DNA from: Chlorobiota bacterium
Lineage (GTDB): Bacteria; Bacteroidota; Bacteroidia; Bacteroidales; JAADJA01
Direction of reading: 5' to 3'
NCBI GenBank assembly: GCA_013151015.1
Contig: JAADJA010000044.1
Coordinates: 1,417-65,416 of the forward strand
Length of the DNA: 64,000 nt
The number at the start of each line of letters is the position of its first letter. Position 1 is the first letter of the stretch. Position numbers and translations under genes: made by a program. Below the pieces are notes generated by a model, which saw only the letters and a list, made by a program, of their open reading frames with translations, did no database searches and was not told where the DNA came from. Shown here piece after piece: positions 39,942 to 52,562 of this stretch.

Positions 39942-40338
39942 GGGGCTGACCGGATTTGACAGCAAGGACAGTGGATTTGTAAGCATGCCGGGCCATGGGA
40001 TACGCTCGTTAAAAATTTTCCCACAACTATAATTGGCGATTCTAATTACGCTCTTGCTGCGTAACCGAAGTTTAGTAGGTTAGGCTTAATTCCAGCTCCA
40101 GGAGCCGGAACGAGACATCCCGCGGGCGGATCTGTCTGATTCCAACCTGATCACGGGGTGCTGACAATTTCAGACTGGCCGGGTGAACGCTCCGCTCATT
40201 TCGGCGAGATAAAGGAGATAAGGTTTTGATTTGGGTGACTGTTCCCGGGCAATATTCGAAAATCAATAACAGTATAAGCATGTAGAAAGCACTTTTGCTG
40301 CTTGTTTGGACGAGGGTTCGACTCCCTCCAGCTCCACC
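39942..40338 (+). ncRNA. ssrA: tmRNA (SsrA)
   Basis: The 5' end is GGGGCTGACCGGATTTGAC. The 3' tRNA-like end is GGACGAGGGTTCGACTCCCTCCAGCTCCACC. The tag reading frame at 40035-40064 is GGC GAT TCT AAT TAC GCT CTT GCT GCG TAA, giving GDSNYALAA*. Confidence 0.95.
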
Positions 40339-40447
40339 TTCGCCCGCCGTAGCCTTGGCGCAGGCGGGCTTCGCCCTCTCCTACACAGAGTACGGCGGGC
40401 TACGGCGGACACTGTCCACCTGATAATACTAACATATTTGCCTGTTT

Positions 40448-40687
40448 ATGTTTTATTATGTGTATATACTTCAATGTAATGACCTATCTTATTATACCGG
40501 GTGCACACAAAACCTTGATGAAAGATTGGCTGCCCATAATAAAGGATTGGTAAAATCGACAAAGGAGAAGTTACCAGTAAATATTATCACATATACCGCT
40601 TTTACGAATAAATCCAAGGCCTTTCGATTTGAAAAATACTTAAAATCAGGTTCTGGAAGGGCATTTGCACAAAAAAGATTAAGATAA
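40448..40687 (+). CDS. GIY-YIG mini-nuclease (UPF0213/URI-domain-only), copy 1
   Basis: 79 aa. The motifs are YVYIL...YYTGCT...RLAAHN...FEKYLKSGSG. Confidence 0.85.
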   Translation: MFYYVYILQCNDLSYYTGCTQNLDERLAAHNKGLVKSTKEKLPVNIITYTAFTNKSKAFRFEKYLKSGSGRAFAQKRLR

Positions 40688-40790
40688 ACATAGCCTTGGC
40701 GCAGGCGGGCTTCGCCCTATCCTGCACTAAATACGGCAGGCTACGGCGGACGCTGTCCACCTGATAACACTAAAGTATTTATCCCTGTTT

Positions 40791-41030
40791 ATGTTTTATT
40801 GTGTGTATATTCTTCAATGCAATGACCTATCTTATTATACCGGTTGTACCGAAAATCTGACAAAAAGGTTGGCTGCCCATAACAAAGGATTGGTAAAATC
40901 GACAAAGGACAAACTACCTGTTAAGATTATCACATATACAGCTTTCACGGATAAATCCAAAGCCTTTCGGTTTGAAAAATACCTAAAATCAGGTTCCGGT
41001 AGGGCATTTGCACAAAAAAGGTTAAGATAA
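40791..41030 (+). CDS. GIY-YIG mini-nuclease, copy 2 (72/79 aa identical to copy 1)
   Basis: It has the same motifs as copy 1. Its start lies 343 bp after the start of copy 1. Confidence 0.85.
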   Translation: MFYCVYILQCNDLSYYTGCTENLTKRLAAHNKGLVKSTKDKLPVKIITYTAFTDKSKAFRFEKYLKSGSGRAFAQKRLR

Positions 41031-41147
41031 ACGAAGCTTTAGCGAAGTAGGGCTTCGCCCTTTCACTAAAGCTTCTTCGGGTTTCAGTGGACACCATCCA
41101 CTAACTGGCTTTATAAAAAAACAAATTTACTCCCAACAACCAAACCT

Positions 41148-41486
41148 ATGCACTTCGTTTACATCTTAAAATGCTCAGATAAAACATTTTGTACTGGATG
41201 CACATGTAATCTATATGAAAGATTATCAAGGCACAACAAAGGACAAGTCCACTATACAAAAGACAAACTTCCCTTTGAGCTCATCACCTATATAGCATTT
41301 TCAGAAAAACACAAAGCATATCAATTTGAAAAGTATTTGAAATACGGATCTGGGATCGCATTCAGGAATAAAAAGGCTAATTTAGTTTTTACTTACGTAT
41401 CAACACCTCCGTTGCACCATACCCAAACTCTTTCATGGAAGCATCCCTTGAACTCACGTTATTATAATCTTTCAGGATTTCCTTAA
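41148..41486 (+). CDS. GIY-YIG mini-nuclease, diverged copy 3, with a roughly 30-aa read-through tail
   Basis: FVYILKC...FCTGCT...RLSRHN...FEKYLKYGSG. There is no stop at the position where the paralogs end. The ORF continues 98 nt antisense into the 3' end of the convergent Smr gene. Confidence 0.65.
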   Translation: MHFVYILKCSDKTFCTGCTCNLYERLSRHNKGQVHYTKDKLPFELITYIAFSEKHKAYQFEKYLKYGSGIAFRNKKANLVFTYVSTPPLHHTQTLSWKHPLNSRYYNLSGFP

Positions 41487-42462
41487 TAGCCGTCTTTAAC
41501 ACGCCCGTCCCAACTCCGTGGATGAAAGTGACCTTTGACAGATTATTGGCAATGGCACTATCAAGGCATTTTGTGAAATAGTTAATTTGGACACGAAGCA
41601 TTTCACTGTTCTCCATATTTTGATGGTTATCCACCAATTCATAGATATGCAAATCCACTACTGCCTCATGCGGACTGGTTTTATGCTCTTCGATAATGTG
41701 TTTTGGCTTTACCTCTTTGGCTATCTTAACCTCGGGTTCGGTTTGCTTTTTTTCCGTACCTGACCGGAGCAATGAGGCTTGTGCCGAAAGCGGCAACAAG
41801 GAAACCACAATTGCTTTCCCTTCCATTAACGATGAATTTTTATAACTTCCCTCGGTATAGAAACGTGCCGGCTTCACACGGAACTCCGCACTCCCCGGAC
41901 TTAGAATTTTCGTGTCTTCTTCTTTTTGATACAATACCTGTACAACGCCCCGGCACCATTTTTCGATTTCGTCCCTTTCAATGGATTCGATCAACAGCAT
42001 GGATTCTGGTGTAACCGAACCATAATCGAAGCCTGAAAAGCCCCCTTTTTCTTCCTCCCTAATAAAGCTGTACAAAATATCATATTCAGTATGGTTAACA
42101 AGATAAAGATCGACCATGCCCGTTATCAGCCACTTCTGATCGTGCGGTACATAGGCCAAAAAAATGCCTTTTTCCAAAATCCCCTGCCCACCAATGTTCA
42201 TCAAAGGGATGTTCCTTGAATCACTCTCATATTCCTGCTTGGGTTGTTCAGGGGCCTCAACTATTACCTCCTCATCAAATGCGCTCTTGAAAGACCCGGG
42301 CAAAGAACCTGTTTCCACTTTCATCAGTTCGCTGATAACAACAGGTATCTCAAAACCATCCTCGATCCGAACATTGACAAGCGAGGGACTCAAAATCTTA
42401 CTTACCACACCTCCCCCACTTTCATTTAAAAACACAACCCTATCTCCTATATTGAATTTCAT
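41389..42462 (-). CDS. Smr-domain protein (DUF2027-like N-terminus + C-terminal Smr/MutS2-type nuclease domain)
   Basis: The C-terminus VVDLHIYEL...VTFIHGVGTGVLKTAI fits the Smr LDLHG/HGxG pattern. Confidence 0.75.
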   Translation of the reverse strand: MKFNIGDRVVFLNESGGGVVSKILSPSLVNVRIEDGFEIPVVISELMKVETGSLPGSFKSAFDEEVIVEAPEQPKQEYESDSRNIPLMNIGGQGILEKGIFLAYVPHDQKWLITGMVDLYLVNHTEYDILYSFIREEEKGGFSGFDYGSVTPESMLLIESIERDEIEKWCRGVVQVLYQKEEDTKILSPGSAEFRVKPARFYTEGSYKNSSLMEGKAIVVSLLPLSAQASLLRSGTEKKQTEPEVKIAKEVKPKHIIEEHKTSPHEAVVDLHIYELVDNHQNMENSEMLRVQINYFTKCLDSAIANNLSKVTFIHGVGTGVLKTAIKEILKDYNNVSSRDASMKEFGYGATEVLIRK

Positions 42463-52399: not shown

Positions 52400-52489
<90 letters not shown>

Positions 52490-52562
52490 ACTTATCCTCC
52501 GAAGCCCAATGGGCATAGGTGGATTGGAATTTGTTTTTTGATTTATCGGGATTTATTATATT

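Follow-up and report, generated by a model that had tools for sequence, protein, structure and literature searches.

The 64,000-nt stretch of DNA analysed here (the window) belongs to contig JAADJA010000044.1 of a Chlorobiota bacterium (assembly GCA_013151015.1) and carries, directly behind its transfer-messenger RNA (tmRNA) gene ssrA, a tandem array of three cassettes, each composed of a GC-rich leader and a small gene for a GIY-YIG nuclease. We find that these cassettes are members of a widespread family of accessory units of ~350-450 bp that sit at the 3' ends of tRNA and tmRNA genes, and that their leaders contain a hairpin that mirrors the tail of the RNA gene upstream. The tmRNA gene occupies positions 39942-40338 of the forward strand (ARAGORN, tag peptide GDSNYALAA; Rfam RF00023, 145.5 bits). 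ARAGORN and Rfam agree on its 3' end, which reads ...CAGCTCCACC and which Rfam places at 40338/9; the last bases, TCCACC, are referred to below as the tail. The array follows on the same strand and comprises leader 1 in its complete form (40339-40447; delimited by sequence, inverted repeats, RNA and DNA folds, family alignment and pair counts), open reading frame (ORF) 1 of 79 amino acids (aa) (40448-40687; Pfam PF01541, E 2.9e-15), leader 2 (40688-40790; sequence and direct repeats D1/D2), ORF 2 of 79 aa (40791-41030; Pfam GIY-YIG, E 5e-15), leader 3 of a diverged lineage (41031-41147; sequence, inverted repeats and RNA fold) and ORF 3, 112 aa as assembled (41148-41486; Pfam GIY-YIG, E 6e-12). 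A gene with DUF2027 and Smr domains on the reverse strand (41389-42462), convergent to ORF 3, bounds the array.

A preliminary description, made from the letters of the window alone, had placed a cassette directly at the tmRNA 3' end and had reported GIY-YIG-only mini-ORFs, a regular spacing of two near-identical copies, a much more diverged third copy and no integrase, and each of these statements was reproduced. The GC-rich leader begins on the very next base after 40338, GIY-YIG is the sole Pfam match in each of the three ORFs, copies 1 and 2 start 343 nt apart and are identical at 72 of 79 residues, and copy 3 shares 58% protein identity with copy 1. Between the tmRNA gene and the convergent Smr/DUF2027 gene there are the three GIY-YIG ORFs and no other ORF, and a combined ORF and Pfam search of this interval found no tyrosine or serine integrase. 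Features of an integron are missing as well, as there is no IntI integrase and every cassette in the array carries one and the same gene family. The GC content is 0.70 in the leader and 0.33 in the ORF, compared with 0.43 for the window, and the genes flanking the array are ordinary host genes that also flank it in a related genome.

The leaders follow a plan that is shared across the family. In the junction alignment, the tail of the RNA gene (NCC) is followed by the trinucleotide TTC, a first hairpin (A), the trinucleotide TWC (T, then T or A, then C) and a second hairpin (B). The arms of hairpin A start with GCYC and end with GRGC, and the rest of the stem varies in sequence; hairpin B has a 7-bp stem and a 3-nt loop of free sequence, and the trinucleotides ahead of both hairpins are near-invariant. 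In Patescibacteria the entire plan takes up 39 nt and consists of two neighbouring hairpins, and in Bacteroidota hairpin A has an additional proximal 3' arm, often followed by a T-run, together with an AT-rich spacer. Leader 1 of the window displays all of these elements, namely the junction TTC (40339-40341), the hairpin A 5' arm GCCCGCCGTA (40342-40351), its proximal 3' arm GGCGGGC (40363-40369), a mini-hairpin GGGC-TTC-GCCC (40366-40376), the distal 3' arm TACGGCGGGC (40391-40400; both long arms from the family alignment), the trinucleotide TAC (40401-40403) and hairpin B, GGCGGAC-ACT-GTCCACC (40404-40420), after which an AT-rich spacer extends to the ATG. Leader 2 begins inside hairpin A (TAAAC/ATAGCC, the slash marking the unit boundary); because the repeat unit starts within this hairpin, copy 2 has no hairpin A 5' arm, and its hairpin B reads GGCGGAC-GCT-GTCCACC (40745-40761). 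Leader 3 likewise begins inside hairpin A (TAAAC/GAAGC) and contains the stem GAAGCTTTAG/CTAAAGCTTC (41033-41042 and 41066-41075), the core GGGCTTCGCCCT (41050-41061) and hairpin B in the form AGTGGA-CACCA-TCCACT (41086-41102), and folds as RNA with -30.9 kcal/mol (z = -6.3).

This anatomy is largely in line with the preliminary description, which had proposed a conserved core enclosed by an outer stem and followed by a second short hairpin. The 12-mer core GGGCTTCGCCCT occurs exactly three times in the 64 kb, once per leader, where shuffled sequences lead one to expect 0.17 occurrences and none of 100 shuffles reached three, and the second hairpins are present in all three leaders. The outer stem stood in copy 1 (CCGCCGTAGCC/GGCTACGGCGG, 40344-40354 and 40398-40408) and in copy 3, but in copy 2 it amounts to merely 5 bp (TAGCC/GGCTA), and the long-range stem that is conserved in the family pairs 40342-40351 with 40391-40400, one register off the pairing first suggested. 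When the tail is included, the fold of lowest energy is a single long hairpin with interruptions, in which B-5' pairs with the tail and A-3'' with A-5'; the local hairpin B is the alternative.

Conservation and covariation of the leader extend well beyond this locus, which supports the preliminary description. In a 31-locus alignment, in which hairpin B was chosen for being a hairpin and helix A and the tail were not so chosen, helices A and B are 86% paired versus 35-45% with a slid partner; nine of the 14 pairs in these helices have changed on both sides, and none of 500 shuffles reached the observed values. Since a loose regular expression for hairpin B (G-U pairs and one mismatch allowed) proved too noisy, we used a covariance model of hairpin B and its 5' flank, R1, which gave 108 matches in 453 kb of GIY-YIG loci, 100 of them on the strand of the ORF, and three matches in 783 kb of control tmRNA loci, two of these in the sole GIY-positive control. 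Matches lie upstream of the ORF in about 69 of 83 sources, and hairpin modules on both sides of the ORF are found in a minority of loci. R1 detects leader 1 (40395-40420, 36.9 bits) and leader 2 (40736-40761, 33.3 bits) of the window, and no copies of the hairpins were found elsewhere in the 64 kb besides the cassettes. Rfam 15 contains no family for the leaders, either at gathering thresholds, which the tmRNA alone passes, or at E values up to 10; the best leader match, CRISPR-DR28, scores 28 bits, under its cut-off of 35. As a separate observation, the tRNA-Ser gene at 52400-52489 of the window is followed 6 nt later by a hairpin, CCTCC-GAAGCCC-AAT-GGGCATA-GGTGG (52490-52530), whose loop signature CCGAAGC...GCRTAGG resembles that of hairpin A in the cassettes; the TTC junction, hairpin B and an ORF are missing there.

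Homologous cassettes were compared at the 80 best of more than 562 loci, taken from contigs of one genome per species and comprising 90 ORF copies, with hosts among the Bacteroidota, the Patescibacteria/Saccharibacteria and a few metagenome-assembled genomes labelled Gammaproteobacteria. Consistent with the earlier suggestion that these mini GIY-YIG genes are tied to tRNA-like 3' ends, they are strongly enriched right downstream of tRNA and tmRNA genes: 67 of the 90 copies, corresponding to 67 of 79 assessable ones, have such a gene on the same strand within 700 nt upstream, at a gap of 42-663 nt (median 137). The remaining copies are tandem followers (6), lie at contig edges (5) or have no called RNA gene (12), and in several of these last 12 the leader is still joined to a 3' fragment of a tRNA or tmRNA. 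Partner genes are those for tRNA-Ser (28 copies), tmRNA (23), tRNA-Val (5), tRNA-Pro (4) and tRNA-Met (2), with one copy each behind the tRNAs for Arg, selenocysteine, Trp, Tyr and Glu; four tmRNA genes that ARAGORN had missed were found by Rfam. Among the tRNAs without a downstream GIY-YIG gene in the same loci, 27 of 29 have ordinary trailers and no TTCGC trailer, and ordinary trailers are also seen behind the three other tRNAs in the window. The distribution is very patchy, as the cassette is present at one of 118 metagenomic tmRNA genes whose 24-nt 3' end equals that of the window's tmRNA, and empty tmRNA ends were seen in runs X2-X4. Based on the linkage of the 67 copies, the ordinary trailers elsewhere and the occupancy of 1/118, we conclude that the cassette is a sporadic accessory sited at the 3' end of an RNA gene. 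No integrase or other island gene was found beside any of the ~80 loci inspected, and the flanks consist of host genes. The finding extends to thousands of loci: a word-indexed search with the protein returned 2,192 matches, and an exhaustive profile search 2,490 clusters at 50% identity with E values up to 1e-10. The literature searched contained no account of GIY-YIG genes linked to the 3' ends of tRNA or tmRNA genes, and this coupling, together with the target-matching hairpin, is apparently unreported.

The most specific property of the family is that the 3' arm of hairpin B equals the last ~6 nt of whichever tRNA or tmRNA gene stands upstream. It reads TCCACC behind tmRNA and tRNA-Arg, TCCGCC behind tRNA-Ser, CCCACC behind tRNA-Val, tRNA-Met and tRNA-Tyr, CCCGAC behind tRNA-Pro and GCTGC behind tRNA-Glu. 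The mean matched suffix is 4.97 nt, compared with 2.82 ± 0.28 when partners are permuted, and none of 10,000 permutations reached the observed value. In line with this, pairing between the B 5' arm and the tail reaches 86%; six of seven positions are complementary and five of seven have changed on both sides. At L023 and L047, a tmRNA-linked and a tRNA-Ser-linked copy lie 1.2 kb apart in the same genome and each has its own matching hairpin B. The preliminary description had noticed the agreement between TCCACC in leaders 1 and 2 and the end of the tmRNA acceptor arm and had cautioned that it could be chance; because the B 3' arm follows the upstream tail throughout the family, the match is not chance and instead represents a family-wide rule. 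With regard to the base next to this arm, an A follows 3' arms ending in NCC in 8 of 12 loci (alignment A2, column 63), which then read the full NCCA end; the RNA gene upstream of cassettes always reads NCC/T, and most empty tmRNA genes of this type encode the first C only. Two other explanations of the arm were tried and rejected. A target-site duplication of the ORF-containing unit does not fit, since hairpin B stands upstream of the ORF, and if hairpin B were where a circular form crosses over, the order tRNA-ORF-A-B would be expected, and this was not observed.

The proteins are tightly conserved at 78 aa, with 22 invariant positions in 24 diverse members, and residues Y6, Y16, R26, H30 and E62, which include the conserved Tyr, Tyr, Arg and Glu of the GIY-YIG catalytic domain, are invariant or nearly so in these sequences. 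The GIY-YIG domain covers residues 3-70 of 78-79, and the whole protein is a catalytic domain. Of the solved structures, the UPF0213 proteins BH0048 (E 2e-15) and EF2693 come closest, with the Slx1 nuclease domain next; the sequence search of the Protein Data Bank (PDB) returned 1zg2 (E 1.9e-15, 39% identity) and 1ywl (E 1.8e-8) and no Ssn entry. An AlphaFold2 model of ORF 1 (predicted local distance difference test score 96) matched the UPF0213 structures 1zg2 and 1ywl in Foldseek, and Slx1 at template-modelling (TM) scores of 0.69-0.72. The protein is a minimal GIY-YIG domain of Slx1/UPF0213 type, with no room for a DNA-binding module. Comparison of copies 1 and 2 gave a synonymous divergence (dS) of 0.62 and a nonsynonymous divergence (dN) of 0.047, which indicates that the two copies are old and that both have been kept by selection (dN/dS 0.08), and dN/dS in comparisons with the related genome was 0.09-0.18. 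No family for the ORFs was found in NCBIfam, PHROGs or the defence-system library PADLOC. Among 2.9 million viral contigs there were only two distant matches (40-43% identity), so a phage vector is unlikely. Plasmid matches obtained with tblastn (Sphingomonas, Legionella, Cupriavidus, Bacillus yazA) proved to be UPF0213-like genes with housekeeping surroundings. One of them, on a Sphingomonas parapaucimobilis plasmid (L205, 1501-2549), is a 106-aa UPF0213-like GIY-YIG gene that shares 4 nt with the start of an overlapping RNA methyltransferase gene. A survey of the superfamily published in 2006 described prokaryotic Slx1-like proteins as the minimal form of the GIY-YIG domain and reported one such domain fused to a TrmH-like tRNA methyltransferase (PMC1564403), an arrangement that the Sphingomonas overlap echoes.

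The unusual length of ORF 3 is due to one additional A at 41370 in an A-run spanning 41367-41376, which shifts the end of the frame. This A is missing from 104 of 144 contig depth in the source-like run X1 and from 100% in X3. Without it, ORF 3 encodes 78 aa (41148-41385), ends in NKRLI and a stop codon as in the family consensus, and stops 3 nt from the stop of the Smr/DUF2027 gene, which the 112-aa form overlaps. A long form (113 aa) is also present in the relative GCA_024278155.1 (L082), where an Smr gene is again the neighbour. Smr is a nicking-endonuclease domain as in MutS2, and its position next to the array is probably a coincidence.

Several features of the loci bear on how the cassettes arrive and multiply. 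At least eight loci (L004, L013, L021, L045, L049, L051, L054 and L060) contain a second copy of the tRNA or tmRNA 3' end, from the T-loop to the tail, of 11-22 nt and located 30-110 nt after the ORF; at L013 the direct repeat reaches 63 nt and includes the terminator. In the window, no such repeat of a tRNA or tmRNA 3' end follows ORF 3. At L019 (4572-4682), a tRNA-Val gene is followed by a complete A-B unit without a GIY-YIG ORF, which has GCCCAC repeats at its bounds and is directly followed by a terminator-like hairpin, seemingly the native terminator; this unit may be non-autonomous or may have lost its ORF by deletion. At several loci, A and B modules flank the ORF on both sides or partial extra units are present. 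In two loci (L002, ~2330-2460; L041, ~1100-1290), short B-like units stand in tandem between the RNA gene and the ORF, with ...tttctttggacgcagtccaccttcacgtaaag... repeated three times in L002, which indicates that the hairpin module can amplify alone. A different type of unit was seen at nine of 120 Bacteroidales-type metagenomic tmRNA loci (L120, L129, L130, L124, L134, L152, L157, L181 and L108), where one or two ORF-less units of ~90 nt lie right after the tmRNA gene. These units start with TTCG in several cases (L120, L130) and otherwise with sequences that include TAGCG and GATG, all contain hairpins, and all end in an 18-nt copy of the tmRNA 3' end (GACTCCCTCCAGCTCCAC); by their sequence they look like a second kind of small tail-duplicating insertion at ssrA.

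The preliminary description had proposed that a self-propagating cassette, targeting either tRNA-like 3' ends or its own structured leader, was inserted or duplicated serially. The array does mix two protein lineages, since ORF 3 is closer to the tmRNA-linked copy of L067 (73% identity, against 58% to ORF 1), and ORF 1 and ORF 2 are closest to copies at L001 and L003. Copies 1 and 2, however, are not recent insertions given their divergence, and insertion after a tRNA-like end does not describe the array units: in all arrays examined (the window, its relative L081, L035 with five copies, L042 and L085) the junctions fall within the 5' arm or loop of hairpin A, and both window junctions conform to TAAAC/RWAGC. 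Across the Bacteroidota, the protein tree intersperses tmRNA-, Val-, Pro-, Arg- and Ser-linked copies, and the Patescibacterial copies are mostly found behind tRNA-Ser. The number of cassettes varies between related strains, another point on which the initial expectation was borne out. In the related assembly GCA_024278155.1, the same genes flank an array of at least two cassettes, inside which the contigs break, and run X1 contains a low-depth contig form that joins leader 1 to leader 3. A further X1 contig ('record 4'; 1,917 nt, depth 40), which matches the window at 41314-41572, includes the exact end of ORF 3, next ~1.5 kb absent from the window, and finally a second version of 41334-41572 that has diverged to ~87% identity. 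Another strain present in X1 may have more cassettes, or another insertion, between ORF 3 and the Smr gene.

The explanation that we favour, with moderate confidence, takes these features jointly and regards the cassette as a two-component unit whose hairpins would be recognised by the nuclease encoded next to them, as single-stranded DNA (ssDNA). The first component is the set of nested GC-rich palindromes on the sense strand, hairpin A after TTC and hairpin B after TWC, in which the B 5' arm is complementary, and the B 3' arm identical, to the final ~6 nt of the neighbouring tRNA or tmRNA gene; the second is the stand-alone 78-aa nuclease of Slx1/UPF0213 type. The proposed recognition is by likeness to the Ssn family. 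In that family, SsnA of Neisseria meningitidis, a GIY-YIG protein of 94 aa and one domain, is encoded between directional hairpin repeats (NTS), and it binds and cuts ssDNA only, upstream of the hairpin, with the three nt before the palindrome being most critical for cutting and the loop being dispensable (PMC11893778). We suggest that nicking at the hairpins drives host recombination, which could insert the cassette behind a tRNA gene and thereby leave direct repeats of the tRNA 3' end, retarget the cassette to other tRNAs, and build or shrink tandem arrays whose junctions lie inside hairpin A. The array of the window has neither a terminator-like site between the tmRNA and its end nor an above-chance promoter. 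Most likely, transcription that starts at the promoter of the tmRNA or tRNA gene reads through into the cassette, which is presumably co-transcribed with the RNA gene.

Several points weigh against this explanation. Any movement of the cassette must go through host repair, since GIY-YIG enzymes hydrolyse DNA without joining it. The Ssn-related motif HGTCWY..YYVSBRH..WNVSBRG..RNCYNB had 0 matches on both strands of 444 kb of GIY-YIG loci, with a regular expression that recovers all NTS variants. Close relatives provided no pair of empty and filled orthologous sites that would fix the ends of the element, and metatranscriptome contigs cover the conserved tmRNA alone. In addition, the pairing percentage of hairpin B is partly built in because B was picked for being a hairpin. 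Finally, copies 1 and 2 are old and both conserved, and in the protein tree the Flavobacteriaceae tRNA-Val group looks vertically inherited; such copies and lineages are as compatible with a gene that has been domesticated or is of use to the host as with an active selfish gene.

A more far-reaching form of the same idea, which we put forward tentatively and consider rather unlikely, is that the cassette is a self-retargeting, DNA-guided homing unit of less than 450 bp in which the B 5' arm acts as a built-in guide. The arm would pair with the universal-type 3' tail (acceptor end and NCC) of an unoccupied tRNA or tmRNA gene while this strand is single-stranded, and so assemble in trans the duplex that hairpin B forms in cis. 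The nuclease would then nick upstream at a set distance, in the T-loop region from which the duplicated tRNA fragments run, host repair would copy the cassette in, and point changes in the guide would shift it to another tRNA. This mechanism would explain both the agreement between hairpin B and the upstream tail and the T-loop start of the duplicated fragments. It would also be a naturally occurring equivalent of the 'programmable' cleavage demonstrated in vitro with SsnA, which still cuts its hairpin when this is split into two oligonucleotides (PMC11893778).

A different possibility, to which we give a minor share of our belief and which the preliminary description had named as its alternative, is that the leader acts at the RNA level. 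The cassette would then be a gene that borrows the strong promoter of an RNA gene, and the leader a cis-acting element in a tRNA- or tmRNA-mRNA co-transcript, with hairpin A as a leaky terminator or processing signal and hairpin B as a 5' stabiliser or translation-control hairpin of the nuclease mRNA. Much of the anatomy is consistent with this: the cassette lies close behind the RNA gene and on its strand, the window array is without a terminator or an above-chance promoter, the leaders fold stably as RNA, the T-run after the proximal arm of hairpin A in many long forms is terminator-like, and hairpin B stands 7-60 nt ahead of the ATG in many loci. Moreover, in tRNA operons (L022, L055 and L069) the cassette fills the spacer, and the next tRNA begins 4-9 nt past the stop codon. 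Regulation of this kind, however, gives no reason for the arms of hairpin B to follow the identity of the upstream tail, and it leaves the tRNA 3' fragments repeated after the ORF, the ORF-less A-B unit of L019 and the array junctions inside hairpin A unexplained; nor does Rfam hold a matching family. Attenuation by a terminator and antiterminator, considered separately, was rejected, because the distal arm lies downstream of the proximal hairpin and cannot pre-empt it during transcription.

We think it improbable that the nuclease is instead a domesticated host factor, active at RNA-gene loci or in tRNA and RNA metabolism and kept in place for co-regulation. Such a factor might protect or repair heavily transcribed RNA genes or restrict incoming ssDNA as SsnA does, and the hairpins would be regulatory or binding sites of the protein. 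Strong purifying selection on the old tandem paralogues, the 22 invariant residues across phyla and the coherent, vertical-looking Flavobacteriaceae tRNA-Val clade would all be expected of a host gene. The Slx1-like domain fused to a TrmH-like methyltransferase would agree with a role in RNA metabolism (PMC1564403), the Sphingomonas homologue overlapping an RNA methyltransferase gene points the same way, and SsnA itself has been proposed to be a domesticated element that modulates transformation (PMC11893778). A host function is nonetheless difficult to reconcile with occupancy as patchy as that seen at the tmRNA genes sharing the window's 3' end, with partner tRNAs that switch within host clades, and with tRNA 3' ends repeated after the ORF, A-B units that stand alone and a copy number that varies, and the defence-system library gave no match. 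Lastly, a passive remnant of integrase-borne islands, multiplied by unequal crossing-over and with no role for the nuclease, would account for the location at a classic integration site, for T-loop-to-tail repeats that resemble the attL and attR attachment sites and, through slippage, for tandem copies, but it is very unlikely in view of the ~80 loci inspected without an integrase or other island gene nearby, the recurrence of the same 350-450 bp unit under purifying selection in two phyla, the tail-matched internal hairpin, which is not a feature of att sites, and the near absence of the family from viral contigs.

If the explanation that we favour, of a nuclease acting on its own hairpins, is true, the cassettes would be among the smallest protein-coding accessory or mobile units known in bacteria and a new, integrase-free occupant of a long-known integration hotspot at tRNA and tmRNA genes. 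They would also provide an example of a nuclease that lacks a DNA-binding domain and gains its specificity from nucleic-acid structure and base pairing, and would extend the recently found Ssn-type ssDNA nucleases, here with a defined genomic target, to the Bacteroidota and the candidate phyla radiation. The correspondence between hairpin B and the upstream tail leads to substrate predictions for many natural nuclease-hairpin pairs, which bears on programmable tools for cutting ssDNA. For annotation, thousands of entries named 'GIY-YIG nuclease family protein' could, together with their upstream hairpins, be labelled as one unit.

The cassettes share individual features with several known systems. 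The 3' ends of tRNA and tmRNA genes are classic integration sites of islands, and integrase-borne islands resemble the cassettes in this insertion site and, as regards the eight or more loci that have them but not the window, in the direct repeats of the tRNA 3' end; they differ in that the cassettes have no integrase, measure less than 0.5 kb instead of kilobases and contain an internal hairpin matching the tail. The TnpA elements of the IS200/IS605 family and the REP/RAYT pairs likewise combine a small nuclease with flanking hairpins, which in their case are recognised as ssDNA, and IS608 chooses its target by base pairing between a short internal guide and the target. These systems, in contrast, rely on an HUH Y1 transposase fold with a covalent intermediate and have no known linkage to tRNA genes, and we know of no strand-transfer chemistry for GIY-YIG enzymes. 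Among GIY-YIG homing endonucleases, SegB of T4-like phages is free-standing, lies among tRNA genes and promotes its own inheritance as well as segmental amplification. The Seg genes and the present ones both sit between genes and not in an intron, but the Seg proteins have at least ~200 aa and a DNA-binding domain, are phage-borne and have no known structured leader, whereas the present family resides on chromosomes and is nearly missing from viral contigs. The cassettes resemble homing endonuclease genes in general in that a conserved target may be occupied or empty, as seen here at the tmRNA genes of metagenomes and of runs X2-X4; unlike a free-standing homing endonuclease with its recognition domain, the present protein is a bare catalytic domain.

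By sequence, the present family is nearest to the UPF0213 proteins (YhbQ, YazA; 1zg2, 1ywl), with which it shares the minimal domain (E 2e-15, 39% identity, TM 0.6-0.7) and the absence of the C-terminal Asn of the UvrC/I-TevI lineage. UPF0213 genes, however, are usually single-copy and located in housekeeping neighbourhoods; their function is to our knowledge uncharacterised, and we know of no tRNA-tail hairpins or arrays associated with them. In its organisation, the cassette is best viewed, by analogy, as an Ssn-like mini GIY-YIG nuclease with hairpin modules, which would make the Ssn family (cd10448), compared here by its published description, the closest known system. In both, a single-domain GIY-YIG protein of less than 100 aa without a DNA-binding domain is accompanied by directional GC-rich hairpins on the strand of the gene, with a conserved upstream trinucleotide and a variable loop. 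The NTS-ssnA-NTS arrangement has been compared with that of insertion sequences or of REP/RAYT systems (Chenal et al. 2025, PMC11893778), and neither tRNA nor tmRNA is mentioned in that work. The cassettes described here differ from it in that they form tandem arrays and belong to Bacteroidota and Patescibacteria, and in that their hairpins are confined to the cassette and to tRNA and tmRNA 3' ends, with one of them copying the tail of the RNA gene behind which it stands.

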